NCBI GenBank assembly: GCA_028280145.1
Contig: JANQMM010000063.1
Coordinates: 1 to 53,385 of the forward strand
Reading direction: 5' to 3'
Length of the DNA: 53,385 nucleotides
Origin: Minisyncoccota bacterium
GTDB taxonomy: Bacteria > Patescibacteriota > Minisyncoccia > Phycocordibacterales > JACZSL01
The translations under genes and the position numbers were made by a program. Within the stretch, counting starts at the first letter, position 1; each line of letters opens with the position of its first letter. Shown piece after piece: positions 7,139 to 17,579 of this stretch. The notes under the pieces are model-generated. The model saw nothing but the letters and a program-made list of their open reading frames with translations. It did not search any database and was not told where the DNA came from.

Positions 7139-8905
7139 TTAGTTAACAAAGAAGTTCCATACATGATCCGTGTGTATATACCACTCGTGAACATTGAGGA
7201 ACCGCTCGCTTGGCGTTGTAACCGATCCAAGTCTGATGTTCTCAATATGTTGAGGAACAACATAAATAAAATCTGGTGTATAAATAAAGATCGCAGGAAT
7301 GTCATTTTCGATCTCGCTCTGGAATATCTCGAACTTCTCCAGACGCTCTTCCTTATTGCTGATCGTTCGGGCCTCTTCAAGTGCCGCATCAACAGTGATG
7401 TTTGCGTAGAGGGCGATGTTAAGTCCCGGGTCATTTCTTTGCGATGAGTGCCAGAATGCAAAAAGATCAAGTTCGCGTCCGACGATCTCTCCGAAGAGCA
7501 AAGCATCGTATTTGCGGGGACGAATGACATTCTGATTCAGGTCTCCTGTCTCAAACACATTTACGTCAACGAGTGCGCCGATCGCTTCCCATTCTTCCTT
7601 TACAATGTTTGCGACCGCCTTAAGCTCGGGGATATTTGCTGTTGCGATGGAAAACTCAAGCCGATCGACCCCGTCATTTTCTTCCTTCTCCCACACACCA
7701 CTTTCTTCGTTTACAGTCCACTGGTTGCGTTCCAGAATGTCAATTGCACGTTTCTTTTGTGACAGTGCTTCTAGTTCAAGCTCTTCCGCACTCAATTCTC
7801 TTTCCGGGAGTATTCCGGGCGGAATCGGGCTGTCGATCGCGGTGCCAAATCCGCCAAGGACTTCACGTACGATGCGTTCTTTATCAAGCGCAACATCAAG
7901 AGCCCTTCGAACTTCAATGTGTGCAAAGACCGATGCCCGGTTTTGATTGAAAAAGACACCAAAAATACGAGGGAGGGGCACTTGTTCTATCTGCATATCT
8001 GACGTATTGAGTTCTGCGTATGCAAGGTTGTTGGTCGATATGCTGTTGATCGAATCGACTTCACCATTTATGTATGCGTCGATCAAGAAATCTTCATTCG
8101 GGTAAAAGTACACACGTACTGATTCGATATACGGCCTGCCGAGAGCGTATCCATCAAAACTGTCCAATTCATAGTAGACCGGAATTCCTGAAGAACTTCT
8201 TTTTATTTCTTGTATTTCGAAGGGTCCTGATCCGATCGGATTGGTGTTGAACTCGCTAAAGGCGACCTCTTCGGTATTTGCAGTACCCCAAATGTGTTCG
8301 GGGAGGATGCCAAGCGAGAGGTTTTCAATGAAGGGAGCGTATGGCTGTTCGAGAGTGAACACCACTTCCGTATCGCTCACTTTTTCCACCAGAACGCCTT
8401 CCCAGCTTCCACGTCGCGGACTTTTGATGGTGGGGTTCTGGATGAGTTTCACGGTAAAGACGACATCATCTGCGGTGATCAGTTCACCATCATGAAATTC
8501 AGCATCTTCACGTAGAAACACCGTATATACCAGCCCGTCTTCTGAGACGGTGTGTCCGCGCGCAATATCGTGGACAAATGACCCGTCGGGGGTCGGCTTA
8601 ATGAGTCCGCTATATACAAGCGCTGTCAGGTCTCGATCCGCTTCTGATTGGGCAAGAAGCGGGTTGATGAATCGTGGCGAGCCGACAACACCTTCGGCAA
8701 AACTCCCGCCCTCAGCCGGTATCTCAACAAGTAAATTCTTGTTCACCTGATTCAACAGCGATAGTGTGCTTATGAGGAAGATCGCGCCGAGTACAAGAAA
8801 TAACAGCTTCTCAAAAGGAGAAAAGTCCCGATTGATTCTAAGCGATCTTTTTGAGCTCGTGGTGGGGTAAGGCTCATTCACGTTGTCTGAATGTATTGAG
8901 TCCAT
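7139..8905 (-). CDS. ABC transporter substrate-binding protein, family 5 (peptide/nickel type), membrane-anchored
   Basis: N-terminal TM helix LLFLVLGAIFLISTLSLL. SBP_bac_5-like stretch FHDGELITADDVVFTVKLIQNP. No permease or ATPase genes are nearby. Confidence 0.75.
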   Translation of the reverse strand: MDSIHSDNVNEPYPTTSSKRSLRINRDFSPFEKLLFLVLGAIFLISTLSLLNQVNKNLLVEIPAEGGSFAEGVVGSPRFINPLLAQSEADRDLTALVYSGLIKPTPDGSFVHDIARGHTVSEDGLVYTVFLREDAEFHDGELITADDVVFTVKLIQNPTIKSPRRGSWEGVLVEKVSDTEVVFTLEQPYAPFIENLSLGILPEHIWGTANTEEVAFSEFNTNPIGSGPFEIQEIKRSSSGIPVYYELDSFDGYALGRPYIESVRVYFYPNEDFLIDAYINGEVDSINSISTNNLAYAELNTSDMQIEQVPLPRIFGVFFNQNRASVFAHIEVRRALDVALDKERIVREVLGGFGTAIDSPIPPGILPERELSAEELELEALSQKKRAIDILERNQWTVNEESGVWEKEENDGVDRLEFSIATANIPELKAVANIVKEEWEAIGALVDVNVFETGDLNQNVIRPRKYDALLFGEIVGRELDLFAFWHSSQRNDPGLNIALYANITVDAALEEARTISNKEERLEKFEIFQSEIENDIPAIFIYTPDFIYVVPQHIENIRLGSVTTPSERFLNVHEWYIHTDHVWNFFVN

Positions 8906-9705: not shown

Positions 9706-11391
<1,686 letters not shown>

Positions 11392-11514
11392 TCCGTTCGT
11401 GCCATTCTCTTGAAATACACACATGATTTTCTGCGGAAAATCTGCTCTGCTTAGCACATTACGATGTGTCTCCGTAAGGTATTTCAAAAGAAGATACTCA
11501 CTTTTATTGTTAGG

Positions 11515-11538
11515 AAACCCGCCTTGGGCGGGTTTTTT
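11515..11538 (+). terminator. Rho-independent terminator after groEL
   Basis: CCCGCC-TTG-GGCGGG followed by TTTTTT. Confidence 0.8.
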
Positions 11539-11564
11539 GGTGTGACGCAATACCATGTCCATAC

Positions 11565-11593
11565 TTGACAAAAATATATATTAATGCTATGAT
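11565..11593 (+). promoter_or_regulatory. Consensus-like promoter of the GC-rich orphan ORF
   Basis: TTGACA (11565-11570), 17-nt spacer, TATGAT (11588-11593). An SD, AAGGGG (11643-11648), lies 7 nt before the ATG at 11656. Confidence 0.55.
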
Positions 11594-11655
11594 TGGTGTA
11601 GAAATAGCTTGATCCACAATCACCACCGATACCACCATAGAGAAGGGGTAAGAAG

Positions 11656-12033
11656 ATGAGCAAGAAAAGCCGTAAGAAAGCACCGTTTCCGTTCAAACTG
11701 TCCGGGCGGGATATCGCATCGGCCAACGCTGCTGTCGATATCCTGAAGAGGTCGGCCTACTGGAACCCGGAGATGCACACCATGGCGCACCGTGTCGTCG
11801 ACGACCTCGGCGAGGAACGGGCGGCGAACATCTTTCTCACGGAGATGGGCGGCCGCAAGATCTCTCCGTCACTCATGGGGCGTTTCAAAAGGGCCGGGGT
11901 GAACACCGATCTGCTGAGCGCCAAAGGTCTGGGAACTCCCGATCTGCGACGGGCGGCACTCACAAGGTGTGGCGGCATCCAAGTGCCCAAAGGCATGATC
12001 CACGGGTTCGGGTGCTCCGGAAAGGCAGCCTAA
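11656..12033 (+). CDS. GC-rich orphan hypothetical protein (125 aa)
   Basis: Complete ORF with promoter, SD and terminator. Hand-counted GC is 37/60, 40/60 and 37/60 for 11701-11880. No family recognised. Confidence 0.6.
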   Translation: MSKKSRKKAPFPFKLSGRDIASANAAVDILKRSAYWNPEMHTMAHRVVDDLGEERAANIFLTEMGGRKISPSLMGRFKRAGVNTDLLSAKGLGTPDLRRAALTRCGGIQVPKGMIHGFGCSGKAA

Positions 12034-12058
12034 CGGTGCCTGAGTGGAAACGGGAAGG

Positions 12059-12084
12059 GGGGGCGCGTTTGCGCCCCCTGTTTT
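12059..12084 (+). terminator. Rho-independent terminator after the GC-rich ORF
   Basis: GGGGGCGC-GTTT-GCGCCCCC followed by TGTTTTG. Confidence 0.8.
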
Positions 12085-12114
12085 GTATATAAAAGGAGAC
12101 GGAAACGTAGTATA

Positions 12115-12699
12115 ATGATGGAACTACAAGATAACTTGTCTTATATGGAACTCATTATTTTAGGAATTGTCATTGTCATTGCTCTTTGGGTGGTGGCGAT
12201 ATACAACAAATTTATAAAACTGGTAAACCGTACGAAAGAGGCCTGGGCTGATATTGACGTACAGCTGAAGCGTCGCTACGACCTTATCCCGAATCTTGTA
12301 AACACTGTGAAGGGATATGCCAAGCACGAAAAAGAGACGCTCAGCAAGGTGACAGAAATGCGTGCAGCCGCAATCAACGCTGAAGGGCCGGGTGCAAAAG
12401 GCCAAGCCGAGAACATGCTCACTGACGCGCTCAAAAGTCTTTTTGCCGTTTCGGAGAACTATCCGGACCTTAAGGCAAACGAGAACTTTCTCGAACTGCA
12501 ACGTGAACTCACGGACACAGAGAACAAGGTACAGGCAGCAAGGCGTTTTTACAACGGCAACGTACGAGACCTTAATATCGCACTTGAGACATTCCCACAA
12601 AATATTGTTGGTGGTATGTTCAAATTTGAAAAACGCGAATTCTTCGAACTGGATGAGGAGGATGCAGATGCTCGCGACCCGGTCGAAGTGAACTTGTAA
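12115..12699 (+). CDS. lemA: LemA family membrane protein
   Basis: N-terminal TM, then YNKFIKLVNRTKEAWADIDVQLKRRYDLIPNLVNTVKGYAKHEKETL, the LemA signature region. Confidence 0.85.
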   Translation: MMELQDNLSYMELIILGIVIVIALWVVAIYNKFIKLVNRTKEAWADIDVQLKRRYDLIPNLVNTVKGYAKHEKETLSKVTEMRAAAINAEGPGAKGQAENMLTDALKSLFAVSENYPDLKANENFLELQRELTDTENKVQAARRFYNGNVRDLNIALETFPQNIVGGMFKFEKREFFELDEEDADARDPVEVNL

Positions 12700-12708
12700 T
12701 CCATACAC

Positions 12709-14406
12709 ATGAGAGGGAACACGCACAACTTGTCACTTGCGACGCTTTTGTGTGCGCTGTTTCTTTTTCCTTTTCTTTTGTTTGCCGAGGAGAGCATTTC
12801 ACTCTATGAGGTGGACATTGATATTCATGAGGACTCGTCAATAACAGTGCTTGAGACAATTCATTATGATTTTGGAGAAAGTAGCAGGCGCGGCATTTAT
12901 CGGACCATTCCGACACGTTACGAGACACCTTGGGGAAAGCGAGGTGTTGATGTTGCGATCACATCGGTGACACGAAACGGGTACCCGGAAGAATTTAGGG
13001 ACACCAAAAGAGGAAGTGAGCGGGAAATTCGAATTGGTAACCCGGATGTGTATATTGAAGGCGCACACGTCTATCGTGTTACCTACAAAGTAGAGGGCGC
13101 ACTGAACAGATTTGAAGGGTTTGACGAGTTATACTGGAACGCTATTGGGGACGGGTGGAATGTCTTGATCGAAAACGCTGTTGTGACCGTTGATGCTCCG
13201 GTAAGCGTTTTGGAAGCGGCTTGTTACGAGGGGGTACTTGGCTCAACACAGCCGTGTAGAGACCTCTATGTGGACAGGGATGTAGTGGTCGCAAGGGCGA
13301 TTGAGCTACAACAAGGTAGCGGACTGACCGTTGCAGTTGCCTTGCCAAGCGGAGTACTTACATTTCCCGGAGCTATTGAAAATGTGTGGCGGTTTGTAAA
13401 GCATAACGCAGTGTTGTTTCTGCCGATTTTAGTATTCATATTTATGTTCTTTCTGTGGCGCAAACACGGTAAGGACGCGAAAGGCAGTGGTACGGTCATC
13501 GCGCATTACGAACCGCCAGGCGGCATGTCACCGCTTCTTATGGGAGCACTTGTTGATGGCGGTCTCAATAATGAGGATATCACTGCCGGTATTCTCTATT
13601 TGGCACAACAGGGTTACATCACCATCGAGCGAACGGAGAAAAAAAGATTTCTGGGAAGCAAGGTCGATTATATTTTGACGTGGGTCGGTGATTACGGCGA
13701 GCTTAATCAAAAAGAACAACTGACCGCAGAACTTCTGTTCGGGATCAATGTACATAAAGGACAATCAGTTGCCTTTTCCAAACTTCAAAAGGATAGAACT
13801 GTTGCAATGAGGAGAAGGGCGCTTGCAGAGCACATCGATGCTGACCTAAAGGCGCAGGGGTATTTTGCAAACAAACCTCGGGCGACCACGATGACGTGGG
13901 TGCTTATTCCGGCCGTTCTTATTTTCTTCTCCGTGTTCTTGTTTGAGTTGCTTAATGTTGCATCCATCATTGCCATCATACTTTCCGGCCTCATTGTTCT
14001 TGCATTTGGCGTGCTCATGCCAAAACTTACAAAAAAGGGTGCACTTGCTCGAGAACACATTCTCGGGTTCAAGGATTTTCTGCGAGTTACGGAAAAAGAG
14101 CGCATAGCATTTCACAATGCCCCCGAGCGAACACCTCACGAATTCATGGAATTTTTGCCGTTTGCCGTAGCTTTGGGAATTGAAAAGAAGTGGGCCGAGC
14201 AATTCAAAAATATCGAAATGGATGATCCGTCCTGGTATCGGGGTGGCTCGTTCAAACGTTTCAATGCTGTTGCTTTTGCCGGTGATATCGATAGCTTCAA
14301 GACCTCTATGTCTGCGGGAGTGAGTGCGGCACAAGGCGGTTCAGGCTCTTCCGGTGGAGGATTCTCCGGCGGCGGTATGGGCGGCGGCGGTGGAGGTTCA
14401 TGGTAG
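12709..14406 (+). CDS. DUF2207-like membrane protein with a Gly-rich C-terminal tail
   Basis: Signal/TM, extracellular domain, three central TM helices and the tail GGSGSSGGGFSGGGMGGGGGGSW. Sits directly after lemA, the usual pairing for this family. Confidence 0.7.
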   Translation: MRGNTHNLSLATLLCALFLFPFLLFAEESISLYEVDIDIHEDSSITVLETIHYDFGESSRRGIYRTIPTRYETPWGKRGVDVAITSVTRNGYPEEFRDTKRGSEREIRIGNPDVYIEGAHVYRVTYKVEGALNRFEGFDELYWNAIGDGWNVLIENAVVTVDAPVSVLEAACYEGVLGSTQPCRDLYVDRDVVVARAIELQQGSGLTVAVALPSGVLTFPGAIENVWRFVKHNAVLFLPILVFIFMFFLWRKHGKDAKGSGTVIAHYEPPGGMSPLLMGALVDGGLNNEDITAGILYLAQQGYITIERTEKKRFLGSKVDYILTWVGDYGELNQKEQLTAELLFGINVHKGQSVAFSKLQKDRTVAMRRRALAEHIDADLKAQGYFANKPRATTMTWVLIPAVLIFFSVFLFELLNVASIIAIILSGLIVLAFGVLMPKLTKKGALAREHILGFKDFLRVTEKERIAFHNAPERTPHEFMEFLPFAVALGIEKKWAEQFKNIEMDDPSWYRGGSFKRFNAVAFAGDIDSFKTSMSAGVSAAQGGSGSSGGGFSGGGMGGGGGGSW

Positions 14407-14513: not shown

Positions 14514-15410
14514 ATGGCAACCATCTACACACATCAAGATCGCAATATCCGAAAGACATGGCTTCTCATGTTCTTCTTTCTGGTAGCGGTTATTGCTATC
14601 GGGTGGGGATTCAGTTGGTACTTCAATAACCCGTTCATTCTCTACATTGCGACATTCTTTGCGATCGCCACCAATATATACAGCTACTGGAACTCGGATA
14701 AGCTTGTCGTGCGCATGACGGGAGCAAAACCCATCACTCGCGAAAGCCACCCTGATCTGTGGAACACTGTTGAGAATCTTTCCATAACAGCGGGTCTTCC
14801 CATGCCGAAGGTGCATGTTGTGGATGATCCTGCACCTAATGCGTTTGCAACAGGGCGCGATCCCGAACATGCAGTTGTTGCCGCAACGACAGGACTGCTT
14901 TCCATTCTGGATAAAACAGAACTTGAAGGGGTCATCGCTCACGAACTCGCCCACGTAGGTAATCGTGATATGCTTGTTTCAACTGTTGCAGTCGTGCTTG
15001 TAGGATTCATTGCCATTCTTGCGGACTTCTTCCTTCGTATGACATTTTGGGGAGGAGGAAGACGGGGCAATAACGGCGGGGGCGCACTTTTCTTGATCGT
15101 TGGCATCATTGCGGCAATCTTGCTTCCTATAGCGGCCCGCCTTATTCATTTGGCAGTGTCTCGCAAACGCGAATTTCTTGCCGATGCCTCAGGAGCGCTT
15201 CTGACCCGTTATCCGGAGGGGCTTGCAAGCGCGCTTGAGAAGATCTCACAACATTCGCGACCGATGCAACGTCAATCACACGCAACCGCCCATCTCTTCA
15301 TCGCAAATCCGTTTGGGAAGGGTGGTGAAGCGCGAAAGTTCATGAATAAGCTCTTCTCGTCACATCCGCCGGTTGAAGAGCGACTCAAGGCTCTTCGTGG
15401 ACACAGTTAA
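14514..15410 (+). CDS. htpX: Zinc metalloprotease HtpX (M48)
   Basis: Four TM segments; HELAHVGNRD (HExxH); C-terminal SHPPVEERL. Confidence 0.9.
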   Translation: MATIYTHQDRNIRKTWLLMFFFLVAVIAIGWGFSWYFNNPFILYIATFFAIATNIYSYWNSDKLVVRMTGAKPITRESHPDLWNTVENLSITAGLPMPKVHVVDDPAPNAFATGRDPEHAVVAATTGLLSILDKTELEGVIAHELAHVGNRDMLVSTVAVVLVGFIAILADFFLRMTFWGGGRRGNNGGGALFLIVGIIAAILLPIAARLIHLAVSRKREFLADASGALLTRYPEGLASALEKISQHSRPMQRQSHATAHLFIANPFGKGGEARKFMNKLFSSHPPVEERLKALRGHS

Positions 15411-15433: not shown

Positions 15434-15518
15434 GGAGGCGTCGCATAGTGGTCTAGTGCGCTCGCTTGGAAAGCGAGTAGGGGGCAACTCCTCGCGAGTT
15501 CGAATCTCGCCGTCTCCG
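15434..15518 (+). tRNA. tRNA-Ser (anticodon GGA)
   Basis: Acceptor GGAGGCG/CGTCTCC (one G-U pair), 3-bp D stem, anticodon arm CTCGC-TTGGAAA-GCGAG, long variable arm, T arm GCGAG-TTCGAAT-CTCGC. CCA is not encoded. Confidence 0.9.
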
Positions 15519-15549
15519 CATCTAACAGCTAGCTGTTTAAACTTAAGGT

Positions 15550-15574
15550 CTTCGAGCGTTCGAAGGTCTTTTGC
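15550..15574 (+). terminator. Hairpin after tRNA-Ser
   Basis: CTTCGA-GCGT-TCGAAG followed by GTCTTTTGC. Confidence 0.5.
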
Positions 15575-15697
15575 TTTACAAATCAGTTTTTTGCGATACA
15601 GTCCATAGATAAGGGCAATGTGTCACAATTCTCAAGGAGTTAAGCAGAGAAATCTCCACATAACAAGCCCTACAATTATTAATCTCATATAAAAAAT

Positions 15698-16201
15698 ATG
15701 AATAAAGATAAACTTTCAGAGACGGAGTCAAAACTTGTGACCCTCAACTCTATCATTTCAAAACTTGAACCAGAGATAAGATTGGCAGCTTTTGAAATTT
15801 TGAAGTATCAGTTGTTTGATGGGGAACACGAATATCCAGCAAAAGAAAGAGGAAGTGCAAATAAAGAAGTCGAGAGTTTGTCAGAAGGAGCCAGGGGGAG
15901 TGTGCGAGATTTTTTTGCTTCTTTCGATCCAGAGAAACCTGCGGATTCGACTTTGGTGTTGGCTTCCTGGTTCTATACACAAAGGGGTTCTTCTGCCTTC
16001 TCATTAGATGAATTATATGGACTGTTTGATGAAGTTGGTACACCACGTCCTGATAAAACAAACATGACACTTAGACAATGCTCTAGAGGTGGAAAAAAAC
16101 TCTTCAAGCAAGCAGGACATGGAAAGTATCGTCCCACAGTATACGGCGAAAACTATTTCAAACAAGAAATGAACCTTCGTCCAGGTAAAAAGACTGACTA
16201 A
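15698..16201 (+). CDS. Hypothetical protein with a C-terminal winged-helix-like module (islet ORF1, 167 aa)
   Basis: Low-GC ORF with an acidic middle region. The C-terminal segment LVLASWFYTQRGSSAFSLDELYGLF...GKYRPTVYGENYF is wHTH-like by pattern. No family recognised. Confidence 0.55.
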   Translation: MNKDKLSETESKLVTLNSIISKLEPEIRLAAFEILKYQLFDGEHEYPAKERGSANKEVESLSEGARGSVRDFFASFDPEKPADSTLVLASWFYTQRGSSAFSLDELYGLFDEVGTPRPDKTNMTLRQCSRGGKKLFKQAGHGKYRPTVYGENYFKQEMNLRPGKKTD

Positions 16202-16205
16202 ACTT

Positions 16206-16946
16206 ATGATGTTTGTTGAGTTCATTGCTCCTGCAAAGAACGAATCACATTCCATTAAGTGTTTGTGTGCTCTTTACTATTTGAAGCACTCTCTTAAAAT
16301 TGATGTTGCGTCCGTTGATCAAGTAAAGAACTTGCTAGTTCAAGGTAGAATTTTTAAGAAAGGGAGTAAAATTAACTACCCGCAAGCCCTTGATAGGCTT
16401 GGAGAAAAAGTCGATACTCCAGCAAAAGGATTGTGGCAAATTACCCCAACTGGAGAAAAGTCTATAAAAGAACTGCTTGGATTACCTGAGGGGGACATTG
16501 AAACACAAAATGATACAGAGTACCTTGAAAAACTTATTGCAACAAAAATCAAGGATCCCCAATCCGAGGATTATTTTTCAGAAGGCGCAGACTGTTTAAA
16601 AATCGGGAGACTTAGGGCGTGCGTTGTTTTTCTCTGGTCTGGGGCGATCCATGAAGTTCGAGAGAAAATTATAAAAAAATACTCAACCAAAAAGATTAAT
16701 ACTGCCATTAACAAGCATGATAAAAAAGCAAGGAAAATAAACACCGTTGATGATTTTGCATACATAAAAGATTCGATTTTATTACTAGCGTCCAAGGAGC
16801 TCGGGTTGTTTGATAAAAATGAATATTCTACCCTAGCAAATCTATGCTTAGATCTCAGAAATAAATGTGGGCACCCAAGTAAATATAGCCCCGGTCCTAA
16901 AAGAGTTTCAGCTTTTATAGAAGACTTGGTTAAAATTATTTACTAA
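16206..16946 (+). CDS. Hypothetical wHTH plus HEPN-like protein (islet ORF2, 246 aa)
   Basis: Starts 4 nt after the ORF1 stop. The N-terminal wHTH-like module ends in GLWQITPTGEKSI. The C-terminal helical domain carries LRNKCGHP (Rx4H, nt 16857-16874) about 25 aa from the end. Confidence 0.55.
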   Translation: MMFVEFIAPAKNESHSIKCLCALYYLKHSLKIDVASVDQVKNLLVQGRIFKKGSKINYPQALDRLGEKVDTPAKGLWQITPTGEKSIKELLGLPEGDIETQNDTEYLEKLIATKIKDPQSEDYFSEGADCLKIGRLRACVVFLWSGAIHEVREKIIKKYSTKKINTAINKHDKKARKINTVDDFAYIKDSILLLASKELGLFDKNEYSTLANLCLDLRNKCGHPSKYSPGPKRVSAFIEDLVKIIY

Positions 16947-17135
16947 AAGCGCCCGAGACACCTCTTCTCCAACTCACTAAAACTACTCAAAAAAGCTGAG
17001 CAGGGCTTAACCACCCACGCCTACCTGCCCGTAAGGCAGGGTTCAAGTTCAAGAAAGCCTCCAAGCAACGACGAGATATAAAAGTACTTTCTTGGTGCTT
17101 TTTTGAAAGATTCTCTCATGTATAATTTACTTTGT

Positions 17136-17579
17136 ATGCAGAGAGCAAAATATACAGAAAGTGCTGGTGGTGTTGTGGTCAATAACGAGACAGGTGACGT
17201 GTTGATCGTGGCACACCCGAACAAGGTATGGGCTTTCCCAAAAGGACATATTGAACCGAGCGAAGACCCGCTTATAGCCGCAAAGAGGGAGATTTTTGAG
17301 GAATCAGGCATTACTGAAGTACAGTTGATCTGTGAGCTTGGCAAATACAAGCGGTTTCGCATCGGCAAGTACAGTAAAGATGATGAAAGCGAGATAAAGA
17401 CAATTCGCATGTATCTTTTCACGACTGACCAGCAACGCACCGACCCTCGCGACCCAAGACACCCTGAGGCAAAATGGGTTCATCGAAATAACGTTGCAAA
17501 AGAGTTGACGCACGAGAAAGACCAGGCATTTTTCTTAAGCATCATCAATCAGCTCCCCCCAGTTCCGGAGAAGACATGA
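17136..17579 (+). CDS. NUDIX hydrolase
   Basis: Nudix box GHIEPSEDPLIAAKREIFEESGI. The track ORF starts at a TTG at 17103. ATG 17136 follows TATAAT (17121-17126). Confidence 0.8.
   Translation: MQRAKYTESAGGVVVNNETGDVLIVAHPNKVWAFPKGHIEPSEDPLIAAKREIFEESGITEVQLICELGKYKRFRIGKYSKDDESEIKTIRMYLFTTDQQRTDPRDPRHPEAKWVHRNNVAKELTHEKDQAFFLSIINQLPPVPEKT

Follow-up and report, generated by a model that had tools for sequence, protein, structure and literature searches.

A winged-helix/HEPN gene pair beside tRNA-Ser(GGA) in a Minisyncoccota bacterium, a candidate mobile conflict module with a non-canonical partner protein

The window analysed here is the whole 53,385-nucleotide stretch of contig JANQMM010000063.1 (assembly GCA_028280145.1) from a Minisyncoccota bacterium, and this work concerns a low-GC islet within it (15520–17102; 38.7% GC) that carries two genes, ORF1 and ORF2. 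The islet lies between tRNA-Ser(GGA) (15434–15519, plus strand), which was detected by ARAGORN and matched by the Rfam tRNA model RF00005 with 55.7 bits, and a NUDIX gene (17136–17579), itself followed by a DUF192 gene; htpX (14514–15410) is located 5′ of the tRNA gene. The tRNA gene, whose 3′ end points toward the islet, is presumed to be the integration landmark. ORF1 (15698–16201, 167 aa) starts 179 nt 3′ of the tRNA gene and encodes a partner protein of an unnamed family, while ORF2 (16206–16946, 246 aa) encodes the predicted effector, a winged helix-turn-helix (wHTH)–HEPN protein. Both genes are on the plus strand, with 4 nt (ACTT) from the ORF1 stop to the ORF2 start. This arrangement and its setting had been reported in a preliminary description made from the letters of the DNA, and our gene calls agree with it.

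The islet differs in composition from the rest of the window. The ORF1–ORF2 segment has a GC content of 38.0%, the lowest of any 1.25-kb segment in the 53 kb (mean 46.2%, sd 2.0), and 0.1% of such segments are as low. GC at third codon positions (GC3) is 0.32 in ORF1 and 0.33 in ORF2, the two lowest values among 39 genes (mean 0.466, sd 0.064). The hand counts of 24/60, 23/60 and 17/60 in the islet versus 32/60 in groEL, on which the low GC had originally been proposed, are all exact, and the sliding-window profile concurs. Between the tRNA gene and ORF1, a terminator-like hairpin with a T-run (15545–15570, plus strand) is followed by a candidate sigma-70-like promoter (TTTACA-16-TACAGT; 15575–15602, plus strand) that is only a weak match to the consensus, and 6 promoter-like sites were seen versus 3.1 expected from shuffled sequences. 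A 16-nt 'T-arm repeat' at 15549–15564 was considered as an attachment (att) site and rejected, since it coincides with the terminator hairpin. The Rfam scan of the islet found the tRNA alone, with no known RNA antitoxin or riboswitch.

ORF2 consists of two domains. Its AlphaFold2 (AF2) model, with a predicted local distance difference test (pLDDT) score of 94.5, shows a winged helix at aa 1–91 (16206–16478, plus strand), which is predicted to bind nucleic acid or to act as a sensor, and then an all-helical domain at aa 98–245. The winged helix comprises helices 3–10, 15–29, 37–46 and 58–63, strands 69–73 and 76–79, and helix 81–91. In Foldseek searches, this domain matches the forkhead domains of FOXN1 and FOXN3 with a template-modelling score (TMt) of 0.66–0.71, and MarR-type regulators also match. 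The all-helical part, assigned as a HEPN domain at aa 98–246 (16497–16943, plus strand), contains helices 118–132 and 136–158, an insert at 161–198, and helices 204–221 and 231–245. This is the layout of the HEPN superfamily, whose all-alpha core is built from two helical hairpins (four helices), helices 2 and 3 being separated by a variable insert. In line with this, the top Foldseek match of ORF2 in the PDB is 2q00_B (TMt 0.70, probability 1.0), a structure listed as HEPN-T (PaREP1/8) (PMC3710099), and weaker matches are the HepT toxins 7ae6 and 7ae8 and the HEPN protein 4nqf. No significant match was obtained in the viral BFVD.

The motif L-R-N-K-C-G-H-P covers aa 217–224 of ORF2, 23 residues before the C-terminus, and its R218-N-K-C-G-H223 segment (16857–16874, plus strand) is the predicted catalytic Rx4H motif. 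In the model, this motif occupies the end of helix 204–221, which is core helix 3, and the loop after it, as reported for the HEPN Rx4-6H motif (PMC3710099). R218, N219, G222, H223 and P224 are invariant in 29 of 29 homologues (38–65% identity); E126, R137, F142, W144, D203 and K204 are the other invariant positions of this alignment. Both the motif near the C-terminus and the HEPN fold around it had been read from the translation beforehand, and both are borne out by the conservation and the model.

The preliminary description could place neither protein in a named family. This remains so for ORF1, whereas ORF2 belongs to the recent Pfam family PF27235 ('AF_1680'), which appears in the precomputed Pfam annotation of ORF2 and of all 120 homologues listed. 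At least 120 ORF2 homologues were found in a large-database search, with a nearly constant length of about 247 aa. A sequence search with ORF2 against NCBIfam, the PDB and a Pfam copy without PF27235 gave no useful match. The PADLOC model for PD-T7-3 (PDLC04108) matches ORF2 with E=1.4e-5, aligning residues 111–224 with positions 9–121 of the 432-position profile, and in PHROGs ORF2 matches phrog_27609 with E=5.5e-11. When the ORF2-family profile was compared with the PDB, 'Dandelion-hepn' 9wx2 was matched with E=8.6e-4, and 'Dandelion' 9wxf (460 aa, 12 chains) was a further match. Moreover, hhalign aligned the ORF2 profile with a 432-aa Burkholderia plasmid protein, typed as PD-T7-3 by PADLOC (E=1.2e-24), at 97.5% and E=5.4e-12, pairing LDLRNKCGHP of ORF2 with DDRNRCAHP and thereby the predicted catalytic motif with RNRCAH.

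PD-T7-3, renamed DARNA, is an abortive-infection (Abi) protein whose HEPN domain (R117x4H122) is N-terminal; it is an E. coli single gene with a Pds5-like, single-stranded DNA (ssDNA)-binding C-terminal domain of about 300 aa, and it forms dodecamers (bioRxiv 10.64898/2026.02.22.705581). DARNA cuts tRNA anticodon loops once its C-terminal domain binds ssDNA presented by the ssDNA-binding protein of the phage (SSB), its HEPN domain being gated, without an antitoxin, by the ssDNA-binding domain together with an occluding loop (bioRxiv 10.64898/2026.02.22.705581). ORF2 shares with this protein the homologous HEPN domain, the R-N-x-C-x-H-P motif and the fusion of HEPN to a non-catalytic nucleic-acid-binding domain. 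In contrast, ORF2 has 246 aa and is paired with ORF1; its N-terminal part is a winged helix of about 90 aa, and its HEPN domain is C-terminal. Since the architecture is different, the profile match is confined to 9–121 of 432 and only the HEPN domain is related, the pair was rejected as a member of PD-T7-3/DARNA. ORF2 nevertheless combines a HEPN fold and an invariant motif with homology to an experimentally defined Abi tRNase. It is therefore a wHTH-HEPN protein of different architecture, with a catalytic domain from the DARNA-type HEPN branch. Its HEPN domain is predicted to be a metal-independent RNase, an activity that in the superfamily arises from a composite active site of a dimer.

The same HEPN domain also occurs in a third setting. 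Bacteroidota and Ignavibacteria encode about 23 proteins of ~435 aa that share it with ORF2 (hhalign E=1.9e-54, LRNKCGHP included), and one more each comes from Anaerolineales and from a Sulfuritalea metagenome-assembled genome (MAG); their genes are within loci L061–L087, for example L072:5164–6471 and L063:5152–6453. Neither the ORF2 winged helix nor ORF1 is present. Instead, the N-terminal 285 aa match Phage_int_SAM_4 and Phage_integrase. Compared with XerA (4a8e, E=1.8e-11), Arg-I is replaced by Glu, HxLRH by RAFKY and LGH by LKI, with the Tyr retained; Arg-I, Arg-II and His-III are thereby lost. The recombinase-like fold is probably a non-catalytic DNA-binding module. The idea that these proteins are ORF1+ORF2 fusions was rejected (hhalign 0.5%); they are recombinase-like–HEPN fusions, of which no description was found in literature searches. 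No tRNA gene is present within about 2.5 kb of the fusion genes, the sole one (L070) lying that far upstream. From the architectures of ORF2, these proteins and DARNA, it follows that one HEPN branch is joined to at least three different nucleic-acid-binding modules, namely a winged helix, a recombinase-like fold and the DARNA ssDNA-binding domain.

The partner protein ORF1 gave no match in Pfam, NCBIfam, PADLOC, PHROGs or the PDB. Its AF2 model (pLDDT 82 overall) has three parts, all encoded on the plus strand. An N-terminal helical hairpin at aa 3–40 (15704–15817; helices 3–21 and 25–40; pLDDT about 80–89) is conserved across the family and, going by the model, is a possible oligomerisation or effector-contact element. 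It is followed by a low-complexity disordered linker at aa 42–64 (15821–15889; pLDDT <50), which differs in length between homologues and appears as a gap region in the family alignment, and by a C-terminal winged helix at aa 69–156 (15902–16165; pLDDT >90). The latter resembles the FOXN1 forkhead, the DpnI winged helix, MarR, Fur and IclR in Foldseek. Profiles built on 53 ORF1-type and 53 ORF2-type proteins align the ORF1 C-terminal with the ORF2 N-terminal domain at 96.3% (E=1.7e-9), and both domains match FOXN1. At the level of these profiles, the two winged helices are shown to be paralogous, as first proposed from a few peptide motifs, which are indeed present and fall in the columns paired by the profile–profile alignment. 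The preliminary description had also noted that no nucleotidyltransferase antitoxin of the MNT type is present, and no nucleotidyltransferase signal was found in ORF1 with Pfam, NCBIfam or PADLOC.

An exhaustive profile search with ORF1 returned 2,507 representatives of 50%-identity clusters at E<=1e-3 and 1,018 at E<=1e-10, nearly all of 160–210 aa. Even for a distant homologue, P0146 (E=2.5e-26), the next gene is a PF27235 gene with a 4-nt overlap. Two further ORF1-like proteins, P0148 and P0150 (E~1e-5), were dropped from the family, as no AF_1680 gene accompanies them; near both there is, probably by coincidence, a canonical HEPN (PF05168)–nucleotidyltransferase pair (L172:5874–6620; L173:4918–5322). 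In some loci, a second ORF1-type paralogue adjoins the pair (L019:4510–5013, L034:4930–5487, L048:6938–7834), and in one 318-aa representative, P0274, the winged-helix domain looks tandemly duplicated.

Scanning the genomes of species representatives gave 80 loci. Wherever an ORF2 homologue of about 247 aa is present (57 non-redundant loci), an ORF1 homologue lies directly upstream, mostly with a 4-nt ATGA overlap. Two loci appear as exceptions: the upstream gene is a divergent ORF1-like one in L052, and L045 has broken upstream reading frames beside an insertion sequence (IS)-type ATPase gene. The loci show ORF1–ORF2 to be a strictly conserved, translationally coupled pair. Separately, the ORF2 homologue is fragmented in L025:6001–6744, L065 and L067, through either assembly error or real decay.

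The carriers belong to at least nine phyla (Acidobacteriota, Alpha-, Gamma- and 'Delta'-proteobacteria, Planctomycetota, Nitrospirota, Nitrospinota, Actinomycetota, Chloroflexota, Bacteroidota and Saccharibacteria), among which the distribution is sporadic, and cultured carriers include Stenotrophomonas (S. capsici MH1, L035), Bradyrhizobium (B. lablabi, L031), Rhodanobacter, Microbacterium (L057), Cellulomonas and Kribbella. No conserved third gene emerged from all-versus-all clustering of 213 neighbours, which gave two tiny clusters only. By Pfam, the neighbours are housekeeping genes, HTH regulators, toxin–antitoxin (TA) genes (MazF, HicAB, AbiEi/AbiEii-like), transposases and occasional defence-type genes; integrases account for 2 of 108 downstream neighbours. 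Among the closest loci, no conserved upstream operator or terminal sequence was found. Taken as small co-directional coupled genes with a patchy spread and variable neighbours, the pairs have a generic type II-like TA architecture. One homologous pair, that of L005 (also L006 and L007), is found in a clear defence and mobile genetic element (MGE) context (L005:7468–8463 and 10604–12744), where an rve integrase, a Hypoth_Ymh protein and an Eco57I-type N6-methyltransferase/restriction gene are its neighbours.

In 20 of the 57 loci, the pair has a tRNA or tmRNA gene no more than 2 kb away. The density of such genes is 0.101 per kb within this distance versus 0.016 per kb in the 2–6-kb flanks, a 6-fold difference. 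Their 3′ end is toward the pair in 20 of the 22 cases (p=1.2e-4), and for the nearest gene of each locus this is always so; the pair itself varies in its orientation with respect to the tRNA. The homologous pairs closest to that of the window (65% identity) lie 71 nt past tRNA-Gln(CTG) (L001) and 32 nt past tRNA-Glu(CTC) (L002), and no att repeat above shuffle level was found at either.

In seven loci, a direct repeat of the 3′ part of the tRNA or tmRNA gene (16–50 nt) is present beyond the other end of the pair and delimits an island of 1.8–5.9 kb. The islands are at tmRNA (L012:4129–5970; 18-nt repeat; 1.8 kb), tRNA-Ser (L021:5276–7173; 16–24 nt; 1.87 kb), tRNA-Lys (L051:5019–7739; 44 nt; 2.6 kb, and L027:4472–7057; 46 nt; 2.5 kb), tRNA-Val (L033:5058–7818; 42 nt; 2.7 kb), tRNA-Leu (L008:4292–6902; at least 50 nt; 2.5 kb) and tRNA-Glu (L056:3661–9665; 45 nt; 5.9 kb). 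The repeats were confirmed as exact matches, for which the chance expectation is zero, and they reach the 3′ end of the tRNA from a start in its anticodon loop or T-loop. A repeat of this extent is the trace that tyrosine integrases leave at tRNA genes. No recombinase gene was found in any of the seven repeat-bracketed islands. Besides the pair, their only constant content, they encode a Cro/C1 HTH pair, HicAB, an HNH nuclease or proteins of unknown type. These results show that the pair is horizontally mobile and associated with insertion sites at tRNA 3′ ends. Its presence as the sole constant content of att-flanked mini-islands that have no integrase is the persistence expected of an addictive module.

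For the window itself, relatives were found via HtpX (<=69% identity). They keep the order htpX–tRNA-Ser(GGA)–DUF192, and the slot 3′ of the tRNA gene is variable. It is empty in L093 (5900–6445), with 100 nt between tRNA-Ser and DUF192; it holds a small GIY-YIG gene in L107 (2268–3196), and in both L125 (5944–8386) and L128 (2964–5406) it is filled by a methyltransferase, a small membrane protein and an RRM protein. Neither ORF1, ORF2 nor the window's NUDIX gene was found in the slot of these four relatives. Like other genomic islets and cis-mobilisable elements at tRNA and tmRNA genes that lack an integrase, the window copy is thus located on the 3′ side of the tRNA, has an atypical composition and occupies a site that is empty or differently filled in relatives, and the repeats of the seven homologous loci add to this likeness. 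It differs in that neither a repeat nor an integrase is detectable: the best local alignment for a distal repeat of the tRNA-Ser(GGA) 3′ end scored 8 versus a shuffle maximum of 12.5, in agreement with the failure to see one by eye in the preliminary description, and no integrase was found among the window genes. A further difference is the unusually small size of the pair elements (1.8–2.7 kb), with the pair as their only constant content. That the islet is foreign is supported by its composition, by the site left vacant in relatives and by other loci in which the pair adjoins a different tRNA; the possibility that it is syntenic core of normal composition, raised at the outset as a way in which the idea could fail, did not materialise. 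Elsewhere in the window, ARAGORN called an unusually long, 101-nt tRNA-Gly(TCC) at 7764–7864 where Rfam finds no tRNA even at E<=0.1; this call is either a false positive or a tRNA bearing an intron or insert.

Among known systems, the pair works most like a HEPN TA/Abi pair. With HepT-MntA (HEPN/MNT, type VII TA), it shares a two-gene operon in which the smaller partner is upstream and the HEPN RNase downstream, and a mobile and sporadic occurrence, and the HepT structures 7ae6/7ae8 are among the fold matches of ORF2. However, ORF1 is a helical hairpin plus wHTH and not a nucleotidyltransferase, so the pair is not HEPN-MNT; in addition, ORF2 has no HEPN/DUF86 Pfam match and possesses an extra wHTH. 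AbiE (AbiEi wHTH antitoxin, AbiEii toxin), as one of the type II/IV TA pairs with winged-helix antitoxins, likewise has an upstream partner with a winged helix plus a second region, overlapping or coupled genes, and a duality between Abi and TA. In contrast to AbiE, neither ORF1 nor ORF2 matches the AbiEi or AbiEii models, and the pair is therefore not AbiE; the predicted toxin here is a HEPN RNase in place of a nucleotidyltransferase, and the ORF1 wHTH is paralogous to a domain of the predicted toxin itself. From the CARF-(w)HTH-HEPN proteins of the Csx1/Csm6 type, which are effectors of type III CRISPR systems, ORF2 differs by the absence of CARF, the lack of a CRISPR context and the two-gene arrangement. 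No description of the pair was found in full-text literature searches covering AF_1680, PF27235 and wHTH-HEPN two-gene systems. What is already catalogued is the ORF2 family, as Pfam PF27235; the ORF1 family has no Pfam entry, and neither is a PADLOC v2 system.

Combined, these observations make it moderately likely that the islet carries a self-contained conflict module of the TA/Abi type, acquired horizontally and made of two genes, for a HEPN-RNase effector and a non-canonical partner. As proposed, ORF1 would be made first off a shared transcript and be translationally coupled to ORF2. ORF2 would be the effector, cutting RNA metal-independently via R218 and H223, probably as a dimer or higher oligomer like other HEPN enzymes; a likely substrate, by homology with PD-T7-3/DARNA, would be the tRNA anticodon loop. 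The N-terminal winged helix of ORF2 may act as a nucleic-acid-binding regulatory or sensor head. ORF1 would be the cognate regulator, most likely keeping ORF2 inactive in an antitoxin-like manner and/or competing for the same nucleic-acid ligand. A disturbed balance, caused for example by phage infection, loss of the element or appearance of an activating DNA or RNA, would then release the RNase. The pair would travel as cargo, often the sole cargo, of small islands at tRNA/tmRNA 3′ ends, and the window copy would be such an insertion whose distal att repeat has decayed. The biological role would accordingly lie in addiction and/or abortive infection.

Several points weigh against the conflict-module proposal. 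Toxicity and RNase activity of ORF2, which may target tRNA anticodon loops, are inferred, as is its restraint or tuning by ORF1 in the role of antitoxin or co-sensor, and a contact between the two proteins is putative. The Foldseek E-values for the two-domain ORF2 query are weak (0.1–1), although the TM-scores and probabilities are good. In tblastn searches, sequenced phage genomes gave no homologue, and plasmids gave only DARNA-type HEPN proteins, in Burkholderia. Nor do the surroundings of the pair, in which housekeeping, TA, defence and MGE genes are mixed, amount to clear defence islands. In two MAG loci (L016:5505–5995 and L017:5493–6004), a frameshift in the linker splits ORF1 but the ORF2 gene is whole; if these frameshifts are real and not assembly errors, they argue against an essential antitoxin. 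Finally, DARNA and the recombinase-like–HEPN fusions work or exist without an ORF1-type partner, and therefore the HEPN domain is perhaps self-inhibited and ORF1 perhaps not an antitoxin.

The last two points lead to the alternative of a sensor–effector Abi system, in which ORF2 would be auto-inhibited and triggered by phage-derived nucleic acid at its winged helix, and ORF1 would be no neutralising antitoxin but a co-sensor or adaptor that shares the ligand in a hetero-oligomer. The gating of DARNA by its ssDNA-binding domain and occluding loop offers a precedent without an antitoxin, and the HEPN domain fused to an apparently inactivated tyrosine-recombinase fold in Bacteroidota, again without ORF1, points in the same direction, as do the frameshifted ORF1 genes of L016 and L017. 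Set against this are the strictly upstream position of ORF1 and its 4-nt overlap in nearly all loci, the classic antitoxin-first layout (PMC3710099), as well as the att-flanked mini-islands in which the pair persists by itself, which fits addiction; the ligand, too, is hypothetical. We treat this alternative as tentative and rather unlikely.

The association with tRNA genes could also be read as a function in the element itself, where the winged helices would bind the element ends or the tRNA gene in the directionality or regulation of recombination, and the HEPN-like domain would bind or process nucleic acid without killing the host. The pair is the sole conserved content of 1.8–2.7-kb islands between tRNA-derived repeats, the nearest tRNA 3′ end is always toward it, and its HEPN domain is also fused to a tyrosine-recombinase-like fold, all of which would suit such an accessory. 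On the other hand, the invariant RNxxxH and the homology to an Abi RNase indicate RNA cleavage, two thirds of the loci have no tRNA within 2 kb, and the orientation of the pair is free. Furthermore, the fused recombinase fold is devoid of both catalytic arginines and its genes are not beside tRNAs, and no upstream or terminal sequence is conserved. An accessory role of this kind is improbable.

An ordinary host regulator with an RNA-processing enzyme, by chance beside a tRNA gene, would agree with winged helices being typical of transcription factors, with two JGI homologues annotated as 'MarR family' and with the HEPN proteins that process RNA in normal physiology (PMC3710099), but it is very improbable in view of the syntenic slot without ORF1–ORF2 in relatives, the lowest GC and GC3 of the window, the patchy spread across phyla with unconserved neighbours, and the att-flanked copies. 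Just as little credence is given to ORF1–ORF2 as the functional core of a minimal mobile element, with winged helices and HEPN recognising tRNA genes or tRNA-like structures and acting in targeting, excision or retention, an idea suggested by the pair being, in several phyla, the sole conserved content of 1.8–2.7-kb tRNA-repeat units without a recombinase and by the HEPN–recombinase-like fusions; if true, it would tie the fold of a tRNA-anticodon nuclease to integration at tRNA genes.

HEPN RNases are central effectors of CRISPR, TA and Abi systems, and it is the control that switches them off and on that differs between systems. The ORF1–ORF2 pair is a compact and very widespread architecture, with roughly a thousand 50%-identity clusters of ORF1 in at least nine phyla. 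As it is absent from PADLOC v2 and ORF1 has no Pfam family, censuses of defence and TA systems would miss it. The att-flanked 1.8-kb islands without an integrase provide a clean natural experiment in the persistence and spread of addictive or defence modules at tRNA hotspots. A regulator that is a duplicate of the effector's own nucleic-acid-binding head would represent a control logic that is undescribed for HEPN systems in the literature searched.

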